The translations under genes and the position numbers were made by a program. Source: Octopus sinensis (taxonomy: Eukaryota). Taken from it: DNA of 64,000 nt. The stretch is taken from the NCBI RefSeq assembly GCF_006345805.1, contig NC_043003.1:68882001-68946000 (forward strand), in the 5' to 3' direction. Below are positions 15,415 through 52,587 of this stretch, one piece after another. The notes beneath the pieces were generated by a model. The model did no database searches. It was given only the letters and a program-made list of their open reading frames with translations, and was not told the origin of the DNA. Position 1 is the first letter of the stretch. Every line of letters begins with the position of its first letter.

Positions 15415-16695
15415 TTGGGTTGTCCATAAAGTACGTGCCGATTTATAATAGCTTACCTATCGACTTATTTTAGAATTTGGTTGAGTCCATAAAATAGAAT
15501 TTGACTACACCTCCATTTAGAGCACAGTTTAAGCTATTTTTTCGTGGAAGAAGGTTTATGTTCCTATAACCTGTGTTTATTCTGTATCCCTTTAAAATGG
15601 AAGATAAGAAAGTTCATTTTCGGCACTTGATGCTTTTCTTTTTCCGTAAAGGGAAAAATGCCTCACAAGCAACCAAAGAAATATTCGCAGTTTAAGGTGA
15701 TGTTTCTTTATCCGAAAGAACTGTACGGAAGTGGTTTGCAAGGTTCCGAGCTAGAGATTGTAGCCTTATTGATAAAGAACGATCAGGCAGTCCATCCGCT
15801 ACAGATGATGACCAAATCAAGTCATTAATTGAGAATAACCCATATTACACAACCCGAGAATTGGCAGAAAGCCTTAACCTATCAAAATCCGTCGTTCATG
15901 AGCACCTGGTAAAGCTTGGGTACACAAATCGCTACAATGTTTGGGTACCACATGAGTTGAGTGAGAAGAACGTTTTGGATCGCATTTCCATCTGTGATTC
16001 GCTTTATAAACGGAATGAAAACGCACCTTTTATAAAGCAAAGTGTGACAGGTGATGAGAAATGGATTATCTACCGAAATGTTCAGTGAAAGCGATCCTGG
16101 AGTAAGCAACATGAGCCACACTTAGCCACCCCAAAAGCGGGTCTGAACCCTAAAAAGTCTTGCTTTGTGTCTGGTGGGATAAGAAAGGAATTATGTACTA
16201 TGAGCTTCTTCCTAGTAACCAGACAATTAATTCTGAGAAATACTGCACACAACTGGACGAGTTAAAAGCAGCAATTCAAGAGAAACGTCCAGAATTGGCC
16301 AACAGGAAGGGTGTTGTTTTCTAACATGATAGTGCAAGACCGCACGTTTCTTTGGGAACCAGACAAAAATTGTTGCAGCTCGGCTGGGATGTGTTGCCTC
16401 CCTCCAAATTCACCAGATATTGCTCCTTCGGATTTCCACTTGTTCAGGTCTCTGCAAAATAGTCTTAATGGTAAAAGTTTCAATTCCTTGGATGACGTAA
16501 AAAATTACCTTGATGAATTCTTTGACATGACACTACCTCAATTCTGCGAAGAGGGTATTTTCAAGTTAAAGGAAAGATGGAGATGCATTGTGCAACAAAA
16601 TGGTTCTTATTTGGTTGATTGAAAATGTAATGGCAAGTATTTATTGACCTTTTTCTTTCCTTTAAAAATCGGCATGAACTTTCCGGACAACCCAA
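15415..16695 (+). mobile_element. Full-length mariner transposon (mellifera-subfamily-like), inactive
   Basis: TA|ttgggttgtccataaagtacgtgccgattt ... aaatcggcatgaactttccggacaacccaa|TA; 1281 bp. Confidence 0.95.
15597..16622 (+). pseudogene. Mariner DD34D transposase with stops and frameshifts
   Basis: MEDKKVHFRHLMLFFFRKGKNASQA; WVPHEL; VTGDEKW; HDSARPH; [22 protein letters not shown]. Confidence 0.95.
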
Positions 16696-16697
16696 TA

Positions 16698-17170
16698 CAT
16701 ACTTCGCGAGGGAATAAAGCCTTCTCCATTTTACATCTGGTGGATTACGCTTGATTTCTATGTCCTTCAACTCTCAGCATCATCACCGTTCGTACCAACC
16801 CTAATTTATAAATTACGAATACTAACGCCAGTGGTAACTGCAACAAGCCTCTTTTACGATAAAGACCTGATGTGTTCAATATCCGACGTAGTCCTAGCCT
16901 CTTTCTAATGAACATATTAAACTTTTGTTCAATGATTTGAACTCGTGACAATGCCACCTCGTATATTAAAAATGACCACGAAAGGCGCAGATACAAGCCA
17001 AACTGTAGGTGCCATATTTTATATTTACCTAGTAGCATTGAGTTATCAATTGCCGTTAATCCAATCTCGGCTTGCTTCATAATTTGCATCCCGCGACACC
17101 TTTCTGATAATGTTCTAGCGTATACATGCCACAAGCTCTTGACGGGTTCTTCCTTGAGTGTTGGAGTGTT
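16698..17170 (-). mobile_element. Hero/R2-group non-LTR RT thumb-region fragment
   Basis: PTLKEEPVKSL; LLGKYKIWHLQFGLYLRLSWSFLIYEV...RKRLGLRR.LNTSGLY...LQLP (ORF 16745-17134). Confidence 0.75.
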
Positions 17171-17199
17171 AATTTAAATTTAAATTTAAAATGACAGTG

Positions 17200-18524: not shown

Positions 18525-19916
18525 CATATGTGTGCGTGTGTGCATGTGGGTGCTTGCTCGCGTGTGTGTTAGTGTGCGTGTATGTGTCAGTATTATTTGT
18601 GAAAAATACTTTTTCCGTGTAGCGTGCTAACTTAGAAAATTCTTACTTGAAATAAGCAGTAAGCTCTAAAATCTATTATGGATGTGTTCTTAAATATAAT
18701 GAAAAAAGACGCTTGTTAAATTATTTATGAAAGGAATGGTTTCTGTACAAATTTGAATTTTCCCTGTCACAAACATTTTTCTTCTCGAGGAGCTTCGAAT
18801 TGAAAATATGGCTGTTGATTTAATCATATAGTTTTCTTCCATGTTTTAGCCTTCAATATTTATTTCTGTTCGAAATATTGCATCAACATTTGATTTTTTT
18901 AAAGTAAGAAGTAATTGAGAATATGAAATTCTTCCAACCGGAATATGTCTCTCGTGAAATATTTTTGTCAAAACAATATTTTATTCAAGATATGTATTAT
19001 TCGTTCATTCTACATGACAGTTAAAACTGATGAGATGGTCTCAAAACGATTTGGACCGAGTTATGCAGTTCTGGATATCCCAAAAAAAAAACGGAATCTG
19101 GTGTATTTTACCATCTTTTTAATATCAGTATGTTGAATCCCGTATAATACATCAAGCAATGGAATATTGTGGAATTCTCAGCAAATACCGAATCAATAAC
19201 TACTTTTTCATTCCCACTAATGAAACTACAAAAGGTAAAAAAAGATGGACCTGCAAAAGGTCGGCAAATCACACGAAAGTATACAATACAAACGGATATT
19301 TGGCTTATACAGATTTGAATAGATTTAGCGTAGTTTTGTTTATTGTTCACATGCTTTGAACGTTATTGTTCTGCTCCTCACATATGCACATTTTCCTCCT
19401 TATCCAATAATTTCCCTCATATTATTTGTGCGTGTTGTTCTCCTTACACCTACTCAGAAGAAATTGGCACGACTTCGCCGATGTAATAACCGCACAAACA
19501 CGCGTGCGCGCGCACAACTGTGTGGCGGAGGAAGGGGGAGTATGTTAGTGAGCGTGTTTATGTTTGTGAGTGTGTATGCGTGTGCTAGTGTGTATTTGTG
19601 TTTGTGCGTAATAACAGTGTTTATCAGCGTACACTAAAACATTTTTTTTTATGAATTCGCACTGCTGATATTAGCGCATATATCCGTAGGATTTATAAGG
19701 CGTCAAACACGGTAAATACAACTGATTTGTTTGCAAGTGCCTTGAGAAGGTTCAAAGCAATGAGGGCCTTGAGGTTATAATTGGTTTTAATATTAGTTTA
19801 ATAAAAGGTTGCCCGACTAAAACTAGTCACAGACAGATCCTATTTCTAACAGCTAGCATTGAAGACGTCAATACGTCACAGCATAAGCTGAAAATCAGAT
19901 TCCATCTCAAGTCTAT

Positions 19917-19948
<32 letters not shown>

Positions 19949-19972
19949 CATACATACATACATACATACATC

Positions 19973-20470
19973 ATCAAAGCAGTGTATCATGGAGCAATAA
20001 CCAGATTACTACTTGCCACTTTGAAGAGCATACGTTTGCAATCCAGGAAATATCAACCAAATACCCGATGCACAAAAGAGATAGAAATGCAGGAAAAGCA
20101 GTAAAATGTGATAACCGATGCAGACTTTGTGGAGTTAACACCGAAGATATCACCCACATCATAAACAGTTGTCCAAAAATGTCATCACGGTATCATCTAC
20201 CGATGAGACATGATGTTGTAGCTAGGGCATTTTTTGATGAAGTCTGTCGGAAGAATAACCCCGAGGACAAAGAAATAAGAAATCAGTATGGTTGAAGTTA
20301 TAGCCACACATAAAACAAAACATACAAATATGCGCATATACATACATACACACAAACAAAAATACCCTGTTGTTGATGTTGAATTTCCAAGGAAGGAGCC
20401 ATAGATCTATGTTAGGAACCGGCTCTTTCCCTATTGGCAAGAAGTCTTGAAATAAAGCTGAATAATGACA
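19973..20470 (+). mobile_element. Dong/R4-clade LINE fragment flanked by (TACA)n on both sides
   Basis: ORF 20068-20295 CRLCGVNTEDITHIINSCPKMSSRYHLPMRHDVVAR (CCHC plus RH motif); same 3' UTR as the 2271-2752 copy. Confidence 0.85.
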
Positions 20471-23022: not shown

Positions 23023-23373
23023 TTTCATGCTACATGAAAAGGATTCAATACAAACATCCCAACCGTGATGCTGGTACAACAGATGAAAGAAAAATGTAGC
23101 AAAGTTCATTATTATAAAGCATTTCATATTATCAAACAAATAAGAAATTAATTCGTCCCAAAAAACATTGAGGAATGATCAGACAGTTTTGATTGGCCGA
23201 CTGGAAGCCTTTGATTGTGGGCCTCGAAATAGTAAAAGCGCGATAGAAATGTAATTTCATTTAAAATACATTTGTAATAGATCGAATTATTACAAGTGCA
23301 TTCTTCGAATTTGAACTTTTCAAAGATGATAGGCACTGGTGTGGCTGTGTGGTAAGAAGCTGGCAGATTATAT

Positions 23374-24697
23374 GCCAACCATTAGGTTTATCTCTCGGGG
23401 GATCAAATATGCAACGGTGTGGTTGCTATTTGATACCCCCGAAGAGGCTCGCAGATTCCTGGGCCAGCTACTGGGGGGCAGGAAAATATTGTTCCTTCCC
23501 ATTTATTGTGGAAAGAAGTTGACGAGGGCTTGGGTCTGCGGTTTGTCACCCAGAATTGAGCCCACGTGGATAGGGGATTCTATCCGCCGGGGTCTTGATG
23601 GCAACAGTATGTGAACATTTTGCCTGCGGCTGATTGGGAGGGGTCAAAAGCTGTTTTGAACCTATAGACCCAATCAGCTGTAAATCGGGTATTTCCAGAT
23701 TTTTTTAAGAATGGCCGGGTCTAGGTATCCGTTGATGCTTGAGGGATGCCCCCCACCCAAGTGTCACCTGTGCCTGGAACCGGGCCATATCAAAAAGAAC
23801 TGTCCTAAGGACCAAAATAAGGTCCTGGAGCAGTTGATAAAGATACCGCTCCCTGCTCCCTCTTTGGGGGGAGAGAAGGCGGAAGTCGAGGATGTGGAAA
23901 CCTCCTCAAAAAAAGGAAGAAAACGAAAAGTGGGCAACAATGGTTCCCCATCGAAGGATCCGAGGGTTGCAGGAGGGAGGGAGGATCTGCTGGACAAAGC
24001 AGAGAAACTCCACCCTCCCGTGGCTCAAAGGAAAAAAAAACAAAAAAGAAAATTGGGATATCGACGGCGGTTTGTGACACACTGCCGGCGTGTCCCGAAG
24101 CATCTTTGTTGGGAGTTGTGCCACCAAAGATGGAACTGTACACCCGCCCCTCCATGATGCAGAGGAGGAATTTGTTGTCCTCTTCTATAAGGGAGGAACA
24201 GTGGAATGCTTTGTCAAGAAGCTTAAAGTGAAGGGCCGAAGGGAGGGGATTCTGTCCTGCACAGAGGACCCTGACTAGCTTTCGATCTGTTCAGGATAAT
24301 GGAGTCCTTCCCCGAGGCTATCTTCAGATTTATGCTACATTGGCTCGGCTTGGCGCCGGCCAGGTGTTTAGCTGAGTGAGAAGTCTGGTTGGGCAGGAAG
24401 ACTATTTCATTGATTCATAAATGGACTTGTGTAAGAGGTTTATTGCCTCAAAATGGCTTTGTATGTCGTAAATGTAAGATATCTGTTGCCTCCTTAATGT
24501 GTTTTTGTAAGAGGTTTGTTGCCTCAAATATGTATTTATAAAGAACAATGTGCTCTGGTAAACAGTAATCTGTGGGCGTTTCTGTTGCCCTCATTATTAT
24601 CATATCATCTATCAACTCATCTCAATTTCTCCTTGTCCAGCCCACAGCCTCCTTTCTTTGTAAGGCACTTGTGGTCAATTTAATGAATAGAAGACGG
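23374..24697 (+). mobile_element. Tx1/L1-type ORF1 (gag-like) element without ORF2, inserted in a family-A SINE head
   Basis: FISRGIKYATVWLLFDTPEEA...LPIYCGKK...LEGCPPPKCHLCLEPGHIKKNCP (CX2CX4HX4C). The SINE starts at 23331-23373 and resumes at ~24698. Confidence 0.75.
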
Positions 24698-32143: not shown

Positions 32144-32244
<101 letters not shown>

Positions 32245-32368
32245 TGTTTCTTTATTAGCCACACAGGGCTGCACACAGACAGGACAAATTACAAGGTAGA
32301 GCTTTTCTTTTGGGGGTAAAAAAGGGAGTTTGGTTTTCGATCAAAAGGGATCGTAAAAGGAAAGAAAG

Positions 32369-32369
<1 letters not shown>
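32245..32369 (-). mobile_element. 5'-truncated 3' end of the (GATA)n-embedded Tx1-like element
   Basis: Homologous to 34261-34390, same gata|tgtttctttatta junction, (GATA)n on both sides. Confidence 0.85.
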
Positions 32370-32409
<40 letters not shown>

Positions 32410-33616: not shown

Positions 33617-34091
33617 ATATACATATATACATACACACACACACACAAGCCTACACGCACAATGAGATAGCAATGCTAATTTCTCTGGCGAGGGAATAAA
33701 AATGAAACATAAGATCGTATGATACAATACACTGTGTAATGGTGGGATTTTTAATTTTATTTTTTTCAATTATATGTTTATTCAAGAAACTTTTAATACG
33801 GATCTCTGAAATGTGTAATGTGTATGCATGTGTGTTTGTGCGAATATTTATTATGAATGTATACAAAACTACGCATGTTTATATGTACTTTATATATACA
33901 TTATACATATATATTATATTATATTATATATCATGTATGCATTCAAACACATACATACAATATATGGTCATATATAACCTATGTATGGATATATAACGTA
34001 TGTATGTATGTATCTATGTATATATGTATGTATGTTTGTATGTATGTATACAGATATCTAGCAAGCCAGATAGATAGACAGATAGATAGAC

Positions 34092-34260
<169 letters not shown>

Positions 34261-35946
34261 TGTTTCTTTATTAACCACACATGGCTGCACACAGACGGGG
34301 CAGATTACAAAGTAGAGCTTTTCTTTATGGGGAGAAAAGAGGAAGAAAAAAAAGAGTGGGGTAGGTTTTCGATCAAAAGGGATCGTAAATGTGAGAGAAT
34401 AAAAAGAAAGAAAAGAAAGAAGCGACCAATAGGGATCGTGTATTAGAGAAATTCCATGATGTAAAGTGTAAAGGGGGAAGCAGATAGGGTTTATCCGTGG
34501 AGAGAAAAACCTACAGAAAAGACCACGATAACCTCGTTCAATAATGTCACCTATTAACACATTTGTTTGCAAGTAGGTAACCCTCTGTTTAAAATTTTTC
34601 CGGGTTCATAGGATTATGCTCAAGGTAGCTTCGTCATTCATACGTGCCATCCTTGCTACATTCACCCATCTTTTTTTTTAAAACATTCGCAAAGACAAAA
34701 CTTGCCTCTACTCTCACTTTCCTTTTCAAGTGATACTTGAAGAAGTTGATGAGAGATTGACCAGAGAGGAAAGTGTTTGTCTCCGTTCCTTTCAGACGCG
34801 TCTACAAGATACATTCTTTCGCCATGGCCACAAGAATAATGAAAATAGTTCTTCCTTCCCGTTTGAAGGAAGCAGGCGTGACATTATTGACGATAGACTC
34901 GGCTGATAAACCGACTCGTCCCACGCGTGACAGCAGTCATTCGACTGCTCTTGTGGCTTTTGTTGTGCAGTAGTTGGACACTTCTTTTTCAAATGTGTCT
35001 TGCTTCCGCACAGATAGCAACGTGGTCGCCTGCCCTCTACCACTACATAGAGTTTGTAGCCTTCTGGCAGTTCTATAGTGGTGGGTATATTTTCTCTTGT
35101 TGTTTCATCCAATTGAAGGAGTAATTGGAGTGATTTTCCCACCCGGTTTTGCTGTTCTAGAACGGCGATTTCAAGAATGTTTGTCTCTACCATTTCAAAG
35201 CAGATGGCAGAGACTAACCATTGTATTTCTACTTTAGGTGGTACATTTTTTATTGTGATTTTCGTCACCCTCTGGCCTAGATAAGTTGGTATCATCACCA
35301 AGTCATATGTATGCAGATCCAATGTGGAAAATCGTTTCGCTAGATTTTCATTGTAGCAACGTACTTGGACTGTGCCAAACTTATGCCACCGACTAACGTA
35401 TTCCTTCGAATCCCATACAGGGCGATGGCATTTTTCGATTTTTTTCTGCGGTGCACTTTCTGGTCGTCTTGTATTCTTATTGATAACCCTGCATATTATT
35501 GTTTTTTGTTGTGTGTGTATTTTCCACGAGGAGTTGTGGAATGTGGAGATGCAAATTATATCCTTCTTTGGTGAGAAGTGCCTTTGTGTTGTTTATTTCT
35601 TGTGCGGTGAATTTGATAATTGTTCTCTTTTGTTTTATCGCTTCCGCAAAGTTTGTTTTCTTTTTGGTGGTGTTAGGGGCAGAGGAGTTAGTTGTAGCAG
35701 TTGAAGTCGTGGTACTAGTCTTGATGTTGACGGTGCTGTCTTCGGTGGGCGGCTTTGTGCTGATTTCGTTGTTGTTGTTGTTGGTAGTGATGGTAGTGGT
35801 GGTACTGGCATTCATGTTTGCGTCTGTATTCGTTTGTTTTGAAATCCCTTTCTCCGTCCTTCTTTCATCGACAAGTGGTGTAGGGAGTGGGGTAAAATCT
35901 AAGTTAATGTCTTTGGTGGCGGCGATGGTGAATGGCCTTGCGATGT
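34261..35946 (-). mobile_element. Tx1-like non-LTR element, ORF1 plus ORF2 C-terminal stub, within (GATA)n
   Basis: ORF1 with IPTYLGQRVTKITIKNVPP...VEGRRPRCYLCGSKTHLKKKC; stub FIILVAMAKECIL*TRLKG...KRWVNVARM; AATAAA then (TATC)n. Confidence 0.8.
34960..35940 (-). pseudogene. Gag-like ORF1 with CCHC zinc knuckle, frameshifted
   Basis: ORFs 35477-36202 (T/N-rich N-terminus, NFAEAIK) and 34792-35322. Confidence 0.75.
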
Positions 35947-35961
35947 GATAGATATATATAT

Positions 35962-36108
<147 letters not shown>

Positions 36109-40108: not shown

Positions 40109-40894
40109 CTGGGTCATCCCATAAATAATTACTTCAAATTTTTGCCACAAGGGCAACTTGGGAGAGGTGGGATGAGTCGATTACATCAACCCCAGTGTTC
40201 AACTGGTACTTATTTTATCGAACCCGAAAGGATGAAAGGCAAAGTCGACCTCGGTGGAATTTGAACTCAGAACAAAGCGACGGTGAAATACCGCTAAGCA
40301 TTTCGTGCAGGGTGCTAACGATTCTGCCAGCTCCCCCCTTTGGTCATCCGATAAATAATGCCGGTTTTTCAAAAGTCGGAGGTGGACAAGCTAAACTATC
40401 TGCATCAACTTGCTATAGAAGCAGGTAGTATTTTTACCTCATACTTATTCTTAGTGCAAGTTTTGAAGAGTGCAGTTGGATTTAACAGTTATGTTTTCAA
40501 AGCTGTAACGGAGGTGACAAAGGAGCATATTCGGCATATTTTGTTTTATGAGTTCAATAAAGGCAACAAAGCAACGGAAAGTGCGAGGAATATTAATGTA
40601 GTATATGGGGATCGGGCAATAAGCGTAAGCCAATGTCAACAATGGTTCCAGAAATTCGGAGCTGGAAACTACAACCTGAAAGAAAAACCTCGTCCTGGAA
40701 GATCTGTAGAGCTCGACGAGACCCAGGTGGAACAAAATCCTGTTGTGACTGTTGAGGAACCAGCATAGAGGCTTCGATTTGGTCATTCAACCACTCATCG
40801 ACATCTGCGTACCATTGGAAAAGTCAACAAATTGGGTCAATGGCTTCCTCACAAACTCTCTATGCTCGGCCACATTACATATGGGATGACCCCA
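40109..40894 (+). mobile_element. Internally deleted mariner
   Basis: TIRs ctgggtcatcccataaataatg / cattacatatgggatgacccca; transposase N-terminus EVTKEHIRHILFYEFNKG...QWFQKF..RPGR..QWLPHKL, then the 3' TIR. Confidence 0.85.
40130..40339 (-). mobile_element. Family-B SINE inserted in the mariner 5' TIR
   Basis: TSD-like duplication ggtcatcccataaataat / ggtcatccgataaataat. Confidence 0.85.
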
Positions 40895-51649: not shown

Positions 51650-51978
51650 CGCGCATGCGTATCCTGCAATTTCTTTCCATTCATGGAGCTAAGATCACTT
51701 TGGAAGGTTAATGAACAAATGGATTTAATAACACTAACATACCGAAATGCACATAACCCAAAATGTAAGCAAATTTTAATAAGAAGACATCAATCTATAT
51801 ACACGGGCTTCTTTCAATTTCTATGTATTATAGTAGAAAACACGAAAGCTGCTACGCTATGGGACTGAACCCGGAGGCATTTCGTTAGGAAGCAAACCTT
51901 TTAACACACGGCCACGCCTGTACATGTATATGATATGATATGATATATATATATATATGCGTATAGATAGATAGAAAC

Positions 51979-52019
<41 letters not shown>

Positions 52020-52020
52020 C

Positions 52021-52095
<75 letters not shown>

Positions 52096-52463
52096 CAGGA
52101 AACCTGTAACCAGTCGCTGTAAATTTCTATTTTCTTTTACAATTATCATTCCTTTTATTTCTCATTCAATAAAATCTAATGTTCTATGAAAGACCCTCAT
52201 CAGTACCCCTCATCAGCGTATATATTTTCATCGTACGCCTTTAATTTTAATGGGCCCAATCTTTGATTTCTTTGTTATTTCCTTTCATATCTCTTCGCTT
52301 TATTCACCATATTTTTTCACTTGTCTAACCTTATACAGTATTTATTTGTTGTCTCCTGCTATTACTCGTTTCACTACTTTAGTTTATGCTATATCCGCAA
52401 AGAGAGAAAGAAGATAGCGATTAGCAGACGATCAAATAGTTTGACAGGCAGACATGTGGAGAT

Positions 52464-52587
<124 letters not shown>

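Follow-up and report, generated by a model that had tools for sequence, protein, structure and literature searches.

Two broken copies of an L1/Tx1-type retrotransposon that probably inserted into existing GATA arrays

The locus described here raises two questions: whether the (GATA)n microsatellite arrays that flank a retroelement remnant represent its target or its tail, and whether the loss of most of its second open reading frame reflects a non-autonomous family or a single deletion. The window, by which we mean the whole 64-kb stretch of DNA that was analysed, contains a long copy of this element on the minus strand (34261-35946), with (GATA)n arrays on either side. A preliminary description of this DNA had reported repeats on both sides, and this is indeed the case: (GATA)n stops at 34260 and restarts at 35947, and these positions define the boundaries of the long copy. 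On the sense strand, the order is (TATC)n, a Thr/Asn-rich frame (P0002), an ORF1 core frame (P0001) with a zinc knuckle, a junction, an ORF2 tail, a 3′ UTR and again (TATC)n. The target is named (TATC)n here, on the assumption that papers on Tx1 elements use the sense strand of the element for naming. The features of the long copy and its flanks are as follows.

34068 to 34260, unstranded: (GATA)n array that adjoins the long copy at its 3′ end and reads (TATC)n on the sense strand; 42 perfect units plus distal GACA variants.
34261 to 34605, minus strand: 3′ UTR (345 bp); its AATAAA, at 34272-34267, lies six bases from the array junction.
34606 to 34945, minus strand: C-terminal ~113 codons of an L1/Tx1-type ORF2, corresponding to residues ~1001-1111 of protein P0075, just past zf-RVT; three stops and one frameshift near 34707.
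34945 to 34951, minus strand: approximate ORF1/ORF2 deletion junction; the ORF1 C-terminal tail has been lost here, together with EN, RT and zf-RVT.
34951 to 35592, minus strand: ORF1 core frame P0001, of which 35400-34945 is 52% identical to P0003; it includes a CCHC knuckle.
35480 to 35946, minus strand: open low-complexity Thr/Asn-rich frame P0002, probably the N-terminal part of ORF1, open as far as the 5′ junction.
35947 to 36108, unstranded: compound array of (GATA), (TA) and (GACA) bordering the long copy on its 5′ side, with (CATA)n continuing to ~36132.

The 5′ array comprises, in order, one unit, a (TA)n break, seven units, six GACA units and 23 units. The internal deletion, which had been described as a jump at ~34940 to the last ~100 codons of ORF2, is real, but its junction is now placed at ~34945-34951 and the remaining tail at ~113 codons. 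Three candidate stems in the 3′ UTR are compatible with both copies of the element, but none of their 21 pairs changes on both sides and their z-scores range from -0.9 to +1.0; hairpins are therefore not claimed for this region. An Rfam search yielded no match.

The identity of the element is most evident from its ORF2 tail. When translated with X at its stops, this tail recovers 67 relatives among 1.84 billion representatives (best E 4e-23), and the best of these clusters with P0075, a protein of 1111 amino acids that carries Exo_endo_phos, RVT_1 and zf-RVT domains, all above the Pfam cut-off. The tail is 60-65% identical to P0075, with homology starting at 34945 (P0075 residue 1001) and a stop codon at 34606. 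We use P0075 as a proxy for the autonomous partner of the element rather than as its proven partner. A tblastn search of the whole window with P0075 gives a sole match at 34969-34636 (residues 993-1103, the first few of which are unmatched), and an HMM made from all 67 tail relatives finds the same single place. Neither search yields a match to EN, RT or zf-RVT anywhere in the 64-kb window. The reported absence of an endonuclease and a reverse transcriptase is thus confirmed, as both queries match the ORF2 tail only. The Tx1 clade is recognised in part by an ORF2 with an APE endonuclease, an RT and a C-terminal zinc-binding domain, which are present in the proxy P0075 but deleted from the element itself.

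Assignment to a clade is less direct. P0075 aligns to the fish protein P0097, in which ZCCHC3-type RNA-binding domains are fused to EN and RT, with 326 bits, and to human L1 ORF2p, which is more distant, with 175 bits. An RT tree, in which P0075 stands in for the RT-less element, includes 42 of 43 rows, with no named Tx1L, Kibi or Koshi among them. A tree of the tails (56 of 76 rows, 89 columns) places the element within a 50-row group that includes P0075, and no more finely than this. The L1/Tx1-like identity proposed in the preliminary description holds, as evident from the relatives of both the ORF2 tail and ORF1, whereas Tx1 itself is plausible only, given an RT tree that lacks a named Tx1. 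From the sequence, Tx1-like appears to be the best label for the element, because P0075 is nearer to the fish ZCCHC3/EN/RT protein than to human L1, because the neighbours of ORF1 are of the CCHC and ZCCHC3 types, and because of what has been published on RRM/CCHC ORF1 proteins. Specifically, Type I ORF1 proteins combine an RRM with a CCHC knuckle, and the RRM/CCHC ORF1 proteins of non-mammalian animals are described, in the relevant passages of that source, as consistent with the Tx1 clade (PMC5203782).

The endonuclease of Tx1L is described as nicking its own target almost exclusively, and a hairpin loop, 11 residues long in Tx1L, has been implicated in this property (PMC1950540). The corresponding EN loop has 9 residues in P0075, as in human L1, and 11 residues in the sister proteins P0083-P0085. 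The loop length of P0075 neither supports nor excludes specificity of the endonuclease. Among the proteins that match this ORF2 is Octopus bimaculoides P0124, annotated as a neprilysin-1 model, which begins with 64 residues of it (67% identical to P0075). This stretch is either an exonised fragment or an annotation error, and the match links the retroelement family, not the window itself, to Octopus.

ORF1 is in poorer condition than had been described. The gag-like frame does carry a CCHC knuckle, with the pattern C-x2-C-x4-H-x4-C at 35019-34978, but it is not a single open frame, as a frameshift within 35480-35592 divides the P0002 frame from the ORF1 core. The core frame has its first Met at residue 100, inside the conserved part, with no earlier in-frame start, and ~10 codons are left past the knuckle, compared with at least 102 and at least 135 in relatives. 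That P0002 is open to the 5′ junction suggests that the long copy is truncated at its 5′ end. Two relatives of ORF1 were recovered among 172 candidates (E 1e-41 and 2e-18), and the Pfam zf-CCHC model scores below its cut-off in P0001 and above it in the relative P0004. Atlas neighbours of ORF1 are CCHC and ZCCHC3-type RNA-binding clusters (0.88-0.93), and an RRM is hinted at by such neighbours only, at 0.88-0.89. The predicted fold of ORF1 is of low confidence (pLDDT 33.6). No longer or fused ORF1 relatives were found among 548 candidates, which constitutes weak evidence.

A second copy in the window bears on the question of target or tail, and its features are the following.

32144 to 32244, unstranded: array of (GATA)25 adjoining the short copy at its 3′ end.
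32245 to 32369, minus strand: 5′-truncated copy of 125 bp, consisting of 3′ UTR only, with its 5′ end in a TCTT-rich tract of the UTR.
32370 to 32409, unstranded: array of (GATA)10 adjoining the short copy at its 5′ end.

This GATA-embedded copy had been noted previously and is confirmed, with a 3′ junction identical to that of the long copy. Of 122 aligned positions in their 3′ ends, the two copies agree at 110, and the alignment has 17 gap columns (blastn E 2e-28). (TATC)n lies on both sides of both copies (2 of 2), in one orientation, and at every junction, 5′ and 3′, the flank meets the element with a complete TATC unit (one base is ambiguous in the short copy). The 5′ ends of the two copies are 1.56 kb apart within the element, and the copies themselves are 1.9 kb apart in the window. 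Their outer flanks are unrelated and have only simple repeats in common, which rules out a local duplication as the origin of the two copies. A tail alone is insufficient to explain this arrangement, because TATC is also present directly 5′ of both copies, in the same orientation, despite their different 5′ ends and unrelated outer flanks.

GATA-class arrays occupy 753 of the 62,189 bp (1.2%) of the element-free window. The chance of two fixed-orientation GATA insertions is 4e-5, or 0.009 if only microsatellites are considered, by abundance, and both figures are post hoc and apply to copies that lie 1.9 kb apart. With n = 2 copies, we regard a preference for GATA at the level of the family as likely. 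The GATA-specific family of the preliminary description is accordingly a likely one, with GATA on both flanks of 2/2 copies, but specificity is demonstrated for only two neighbouring copies. By a published criterion, a target-specific Tx1 family has more than 20% of its flanks of one sequence type (PMC4494074); here, flanks of one type (TATC) are found in 2 of 2 copies, a sample too small for that family-level measure. A target-site duplication is unreadable inside a microsatellite.

It is quite improbable, in our judgement, that true target specificity is lacking and that we are seeing a (TATC)n-tailed element in microsatellite-rich DNA, whose 5′ arrays are coincidental or expanded out of either a short duplication or the UTR's own TCTT tract. 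The window is AT-rich and dense in microsatellites (111 TRF rows), as would suit chance placement, yet AT runs (1678 bp) are 2.5 times as abundant as GATA runs (660 bp) and TATC is nevertheless found at both 5′ flanks in the same orientation. Growth from the UTR finds some encouragement in the short copy, whose 5′ end coincides with the TCTT tract that resembles the array, but the 5′ junction of the long copy lies in coding sequence that has no TCTT-like tract. Similarly, the arrays on the 3′ side (25 and 42 units) exceed the adjoining 5′ runs (10; 1+7) in length and purity, as a tail would, whereas the two arrays of the long copy both contain GACA variants, which would fit the splitting of a single old array.

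The longer and purer 3′ runs are also the sole hint of array growth. Nothing directly supports the proposal that the element seeds GATA arrays: the presence of arrays 5′ of the copies points to pre-existing arrays as the sites of insertion, and two of the six GATA arrays in the window have no element junction. All six of these arrays (32144-52586) read GATA on the plus strand, an agreement that, for 3-4 independent loci, is not significant. The 23-nt conserved motif of the UTR has no match in GTDB genomes, nor does P0075, and the outside flanks were not found in GenBank phages.

From these data, we consider it probable that both pieces are broken copies of a single L1/Tx1-type non-LTR retrotransposon, and that target-primed reverse transcription likely placed them in GATA arrays that were already there. 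This explanation draws on the anatomy of the copies, their common 3′ junction and single orientation, the whole-unit 5′ flanks, the two different 5′ ends, the unrelated outer flanks and the loss of EN and RT. Counting against it are the small number of copies (two only), their separation of 1.9 kb and the post hoc choice of the locus. By analogy with Tx1L, Kibi and Koshi, the APE domain of an intact partner is predicted to nick the GATA strand, after which the reverse transcriptase would prime on the RNA 3′ end beside the poly(A) signal. An early stop of synthesis would generate 5′ truncation, as was presumably the case for the long copy, and the cDNA of the short copy may have been joined to the target via TCTT/TATC microhomology.

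The long copy is likely dead rather than a working one-gene element. Its deletion was probably already present in the RNA template, either because an internally deleted master was moved in trans or because the reverse transcriptase jumped, since a full-length RNA template would have demanded two rare events, copying from its 3′ end all the way to ORF1 and a subsequent loss of more than 3 kb. The preliminary description had gone further and interpreted the element as a HAL1-like, ORF1-only derivative. HAL1 encodes ORF1p only and arose several times (PMC5753468), and ORF1-present non-autonomous LINEs (HAL1, HeT-A and Ag-Sponge) are assigned in the passages available from PMC5786205 to the Jockey, L1 and CR1 clades, and not to Tx1. 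Like the long copy, these elements have kept ORF1 and the 3′ end and have lost EN and RT (PMC5786205; PMC5753468). However, they are described as multi-copy elements with a coding ORF1, whereas here a single copy carries a broken, truncated ORF1 and a 113-codon remnant of ORF2. If a HAL1-type element is one that encodes ORF1p and lacks EN and RT, this copy has the second property but not the first, as its ORF1 is frameshifted and C-terminally cut, although a master might differ.

A HAL1-like family, in which a master that had a functional ORF1 and a mere vestige of the ORF2 tail was mobilised in trans and maintained by selection on ORF1, with this copy decaying later, is tenable but doubtful; it and GATA targeting are mutually compatible. 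The distribution of lesions is in its favour, as four of the five fall in the ORF2 tail (three stops and one frameshift, in 113 of 445 codons) and one frameshift falls in 332 ORF1 codons (p 0.017). This skew persists if only the 150 alignable ORF1 codons are counted (p 0.034), and these contain no stops. However, it is weakened because two of the tail lesions are possibly at hypermutable sites: one stop is at an A-run, and another may be due to CpG decay. When neutral decay was simulated, 4-59% of runs, according to the rate, ended with no more than one lesion in ORF1.

The existence of ORF1-present non-autonomous LINEs in the L1, Jockey and CR1 clades lends this family reading some precedent, as does P0058, in which a 73-residue non-ORF2 leader gives way to ORF2 at residue 1000, no more than one or two codons from the junction at 34945-34951. 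If this leader is treated as a frameshifted ORF1, its score is reached by 0 of 40 shuffles with a Gln-rich reference, which shuffling disfavours, but by 61 of 300 with the knuckle alone. The Gln-rich reference passed two of ten leaders (P0058 and also P0052). As a second ORF1-to-tail derivative, P0058 is significant only with that reference, and it is kept only as a lead. Moreover, no ORF1 relative carrying the 34945-34951 junction was found, and the ORF1 of the long copy is frameshifted, has a core without an in-frame start and has lost its post-knuckle tail. For these reasons, and because other ORF2 breakpoints occur in 4 of 67 relatives, the HAL1-like derivative is not established.

Those four tail relatives contain in-frame jumps within ORF2 (258->1026, 814->1010, 875->1029 and 925->1031), part of which may be assembly artefacts. 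Four different breakpoints among 67 relatives indicate that varied ORF2 deletions are common, and thereby favour a one-off event in which a near-full-length Tx1-like copy was inserted and its middle was lost afterwards, or once during insertion, with no derivative family. The abrupt cut of ORF1 past the knuckle agrees with such an event, but a long insertion plus a large deletion would be required, and equal decay of both ORFs is a poor fit to the lesion counts. We hold this to be a real possibility, although somewhat short of probable. As a separate observation, six relatives (P0012, P0018, P0031, P0070, P0058 and P0051) keep the last ~80-110 ORF2 residues past an internal jump or a foreign leader, and their resumption points cluster at residues 1000-1031, partly as a consequence of how they were found.

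Insertion into microsatellites has precedents. The reported targets of Tx1 families are (TC)n, (TTC)n, (TTCC)n and (TTTC)n, as well as U2 genes and transposons (PMC4494074), and the targets given for Kibi and Koshi in the preliminary description, (TC)n and (TTC)n, agree with the published accounts (PMC4494074; PMC3812793). Neither of these repeats flanks the present copies, which lie in (TATC)n. The crocodilian Tx1 elements of (TTCC)n and (TTTC)n, along with the fish elements Kibi and Koshi, nevertheless offer the closest likeness, as APE-type L1/Tx1 elements inside pyrimidine-rich microsatellites (PMC4494074; PMC3812793). The TATC unit is one base apart from the (TTTC)n of crocodilian Tx1, and the host here is a cephalopod. 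The microsatellite targets of non-LTR elements that have been reviewed are ACAY, AC, TC, TTC and TAA, with Waldo in (ACAY)n, Mino in (AC)n and Dong in (TAA)n (PMC3812793); Togen targets (TG)n (PMC4640811). These four elements likewise exploit a microsatellite as a safe landing site, but belong to other clades and use other repeat units.

No (GATA)n- or (TATC)n-targeting Tx1 family is among the literature matches listed; Repbase and Dfam were outside that search, and an existing entry is quite possible. Primer-like motifs gave only unrelated matches among those listed, and the portions available of PMC8967140, PMC10294476, PMC8869645 and PMC9004415 add nothing on target sites. For Octopus vulgaris, 80 L1-Tx1 consensus families spanning 56 Mb are reported, 13 of them recently active (PMC13282606). 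These share the superfamily label and the likely host group of the element, the passages considered give no target sites for them, and the family of the element may already be among their consensus sequences. The element is of a known kind, and TATC is likely to be a new repeat unit among the targets of such elements.

If this is true, TATC joins the few repeat units known to be recognised by Tx1-type endonucleases, such targeting extends to a mollusc host, and TATC and TTTC, one base apart, form a natural pair for studying shifts in APE specificity. GATA marker loci in the host would then share repetitive flanks. An ORF1-retaining non-autonomous Tx1 family, if true, would add a clade to the pattern of HAL1, HeT-A and Sponge. 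The known mechanism of retrotransposition is unchanged by these readings. A more extensive proposal, which we consider unlikely, starts from a cephalopod lineage of Tx1 elements whose endonuclease is specific for (TATC)n. From it would have arisen a parasite family that lacks RT but retains ORF1, a Tx1 counterpart to HAL1 and HeT-A, in which the final ~110 codons of ORF2 serve as a cis signal; lineage and parasite together would split and multiply the GATA arrays of a genome rich in microsatellites.

Several other features of the window deserve mention. A divergent second ORF1 remnant with a CCHC knuckle is present at 23387-23833 on the plus strand (region ~23300-24560), 26% identical to P0001 (E 3e-7) and with a zf-CCHC match of E 7e-4; a 26-bp direct repeat at 24427/24503 lies in the same region. 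This remnant was rejected as a sister derivative, as it has no ORF2 tail (HMM, E up to 10) and no GATA flank. At 51963-52586, two GATA arrays surround a unique spacer of 368 bp, whose sequence matches neither the element nor any other part of the window. It was therefore rejected as a third copy, although it might be another insertion into a GATA array. By eye, the frames at 16745-17173 (minus strand) and 19726-20295 (plus strand) resemble C-terminal parts of other non-LTR elements, and those at 15696-16088 and 40355-40768 (both plus strand) resemble remnants of mariner transposases.
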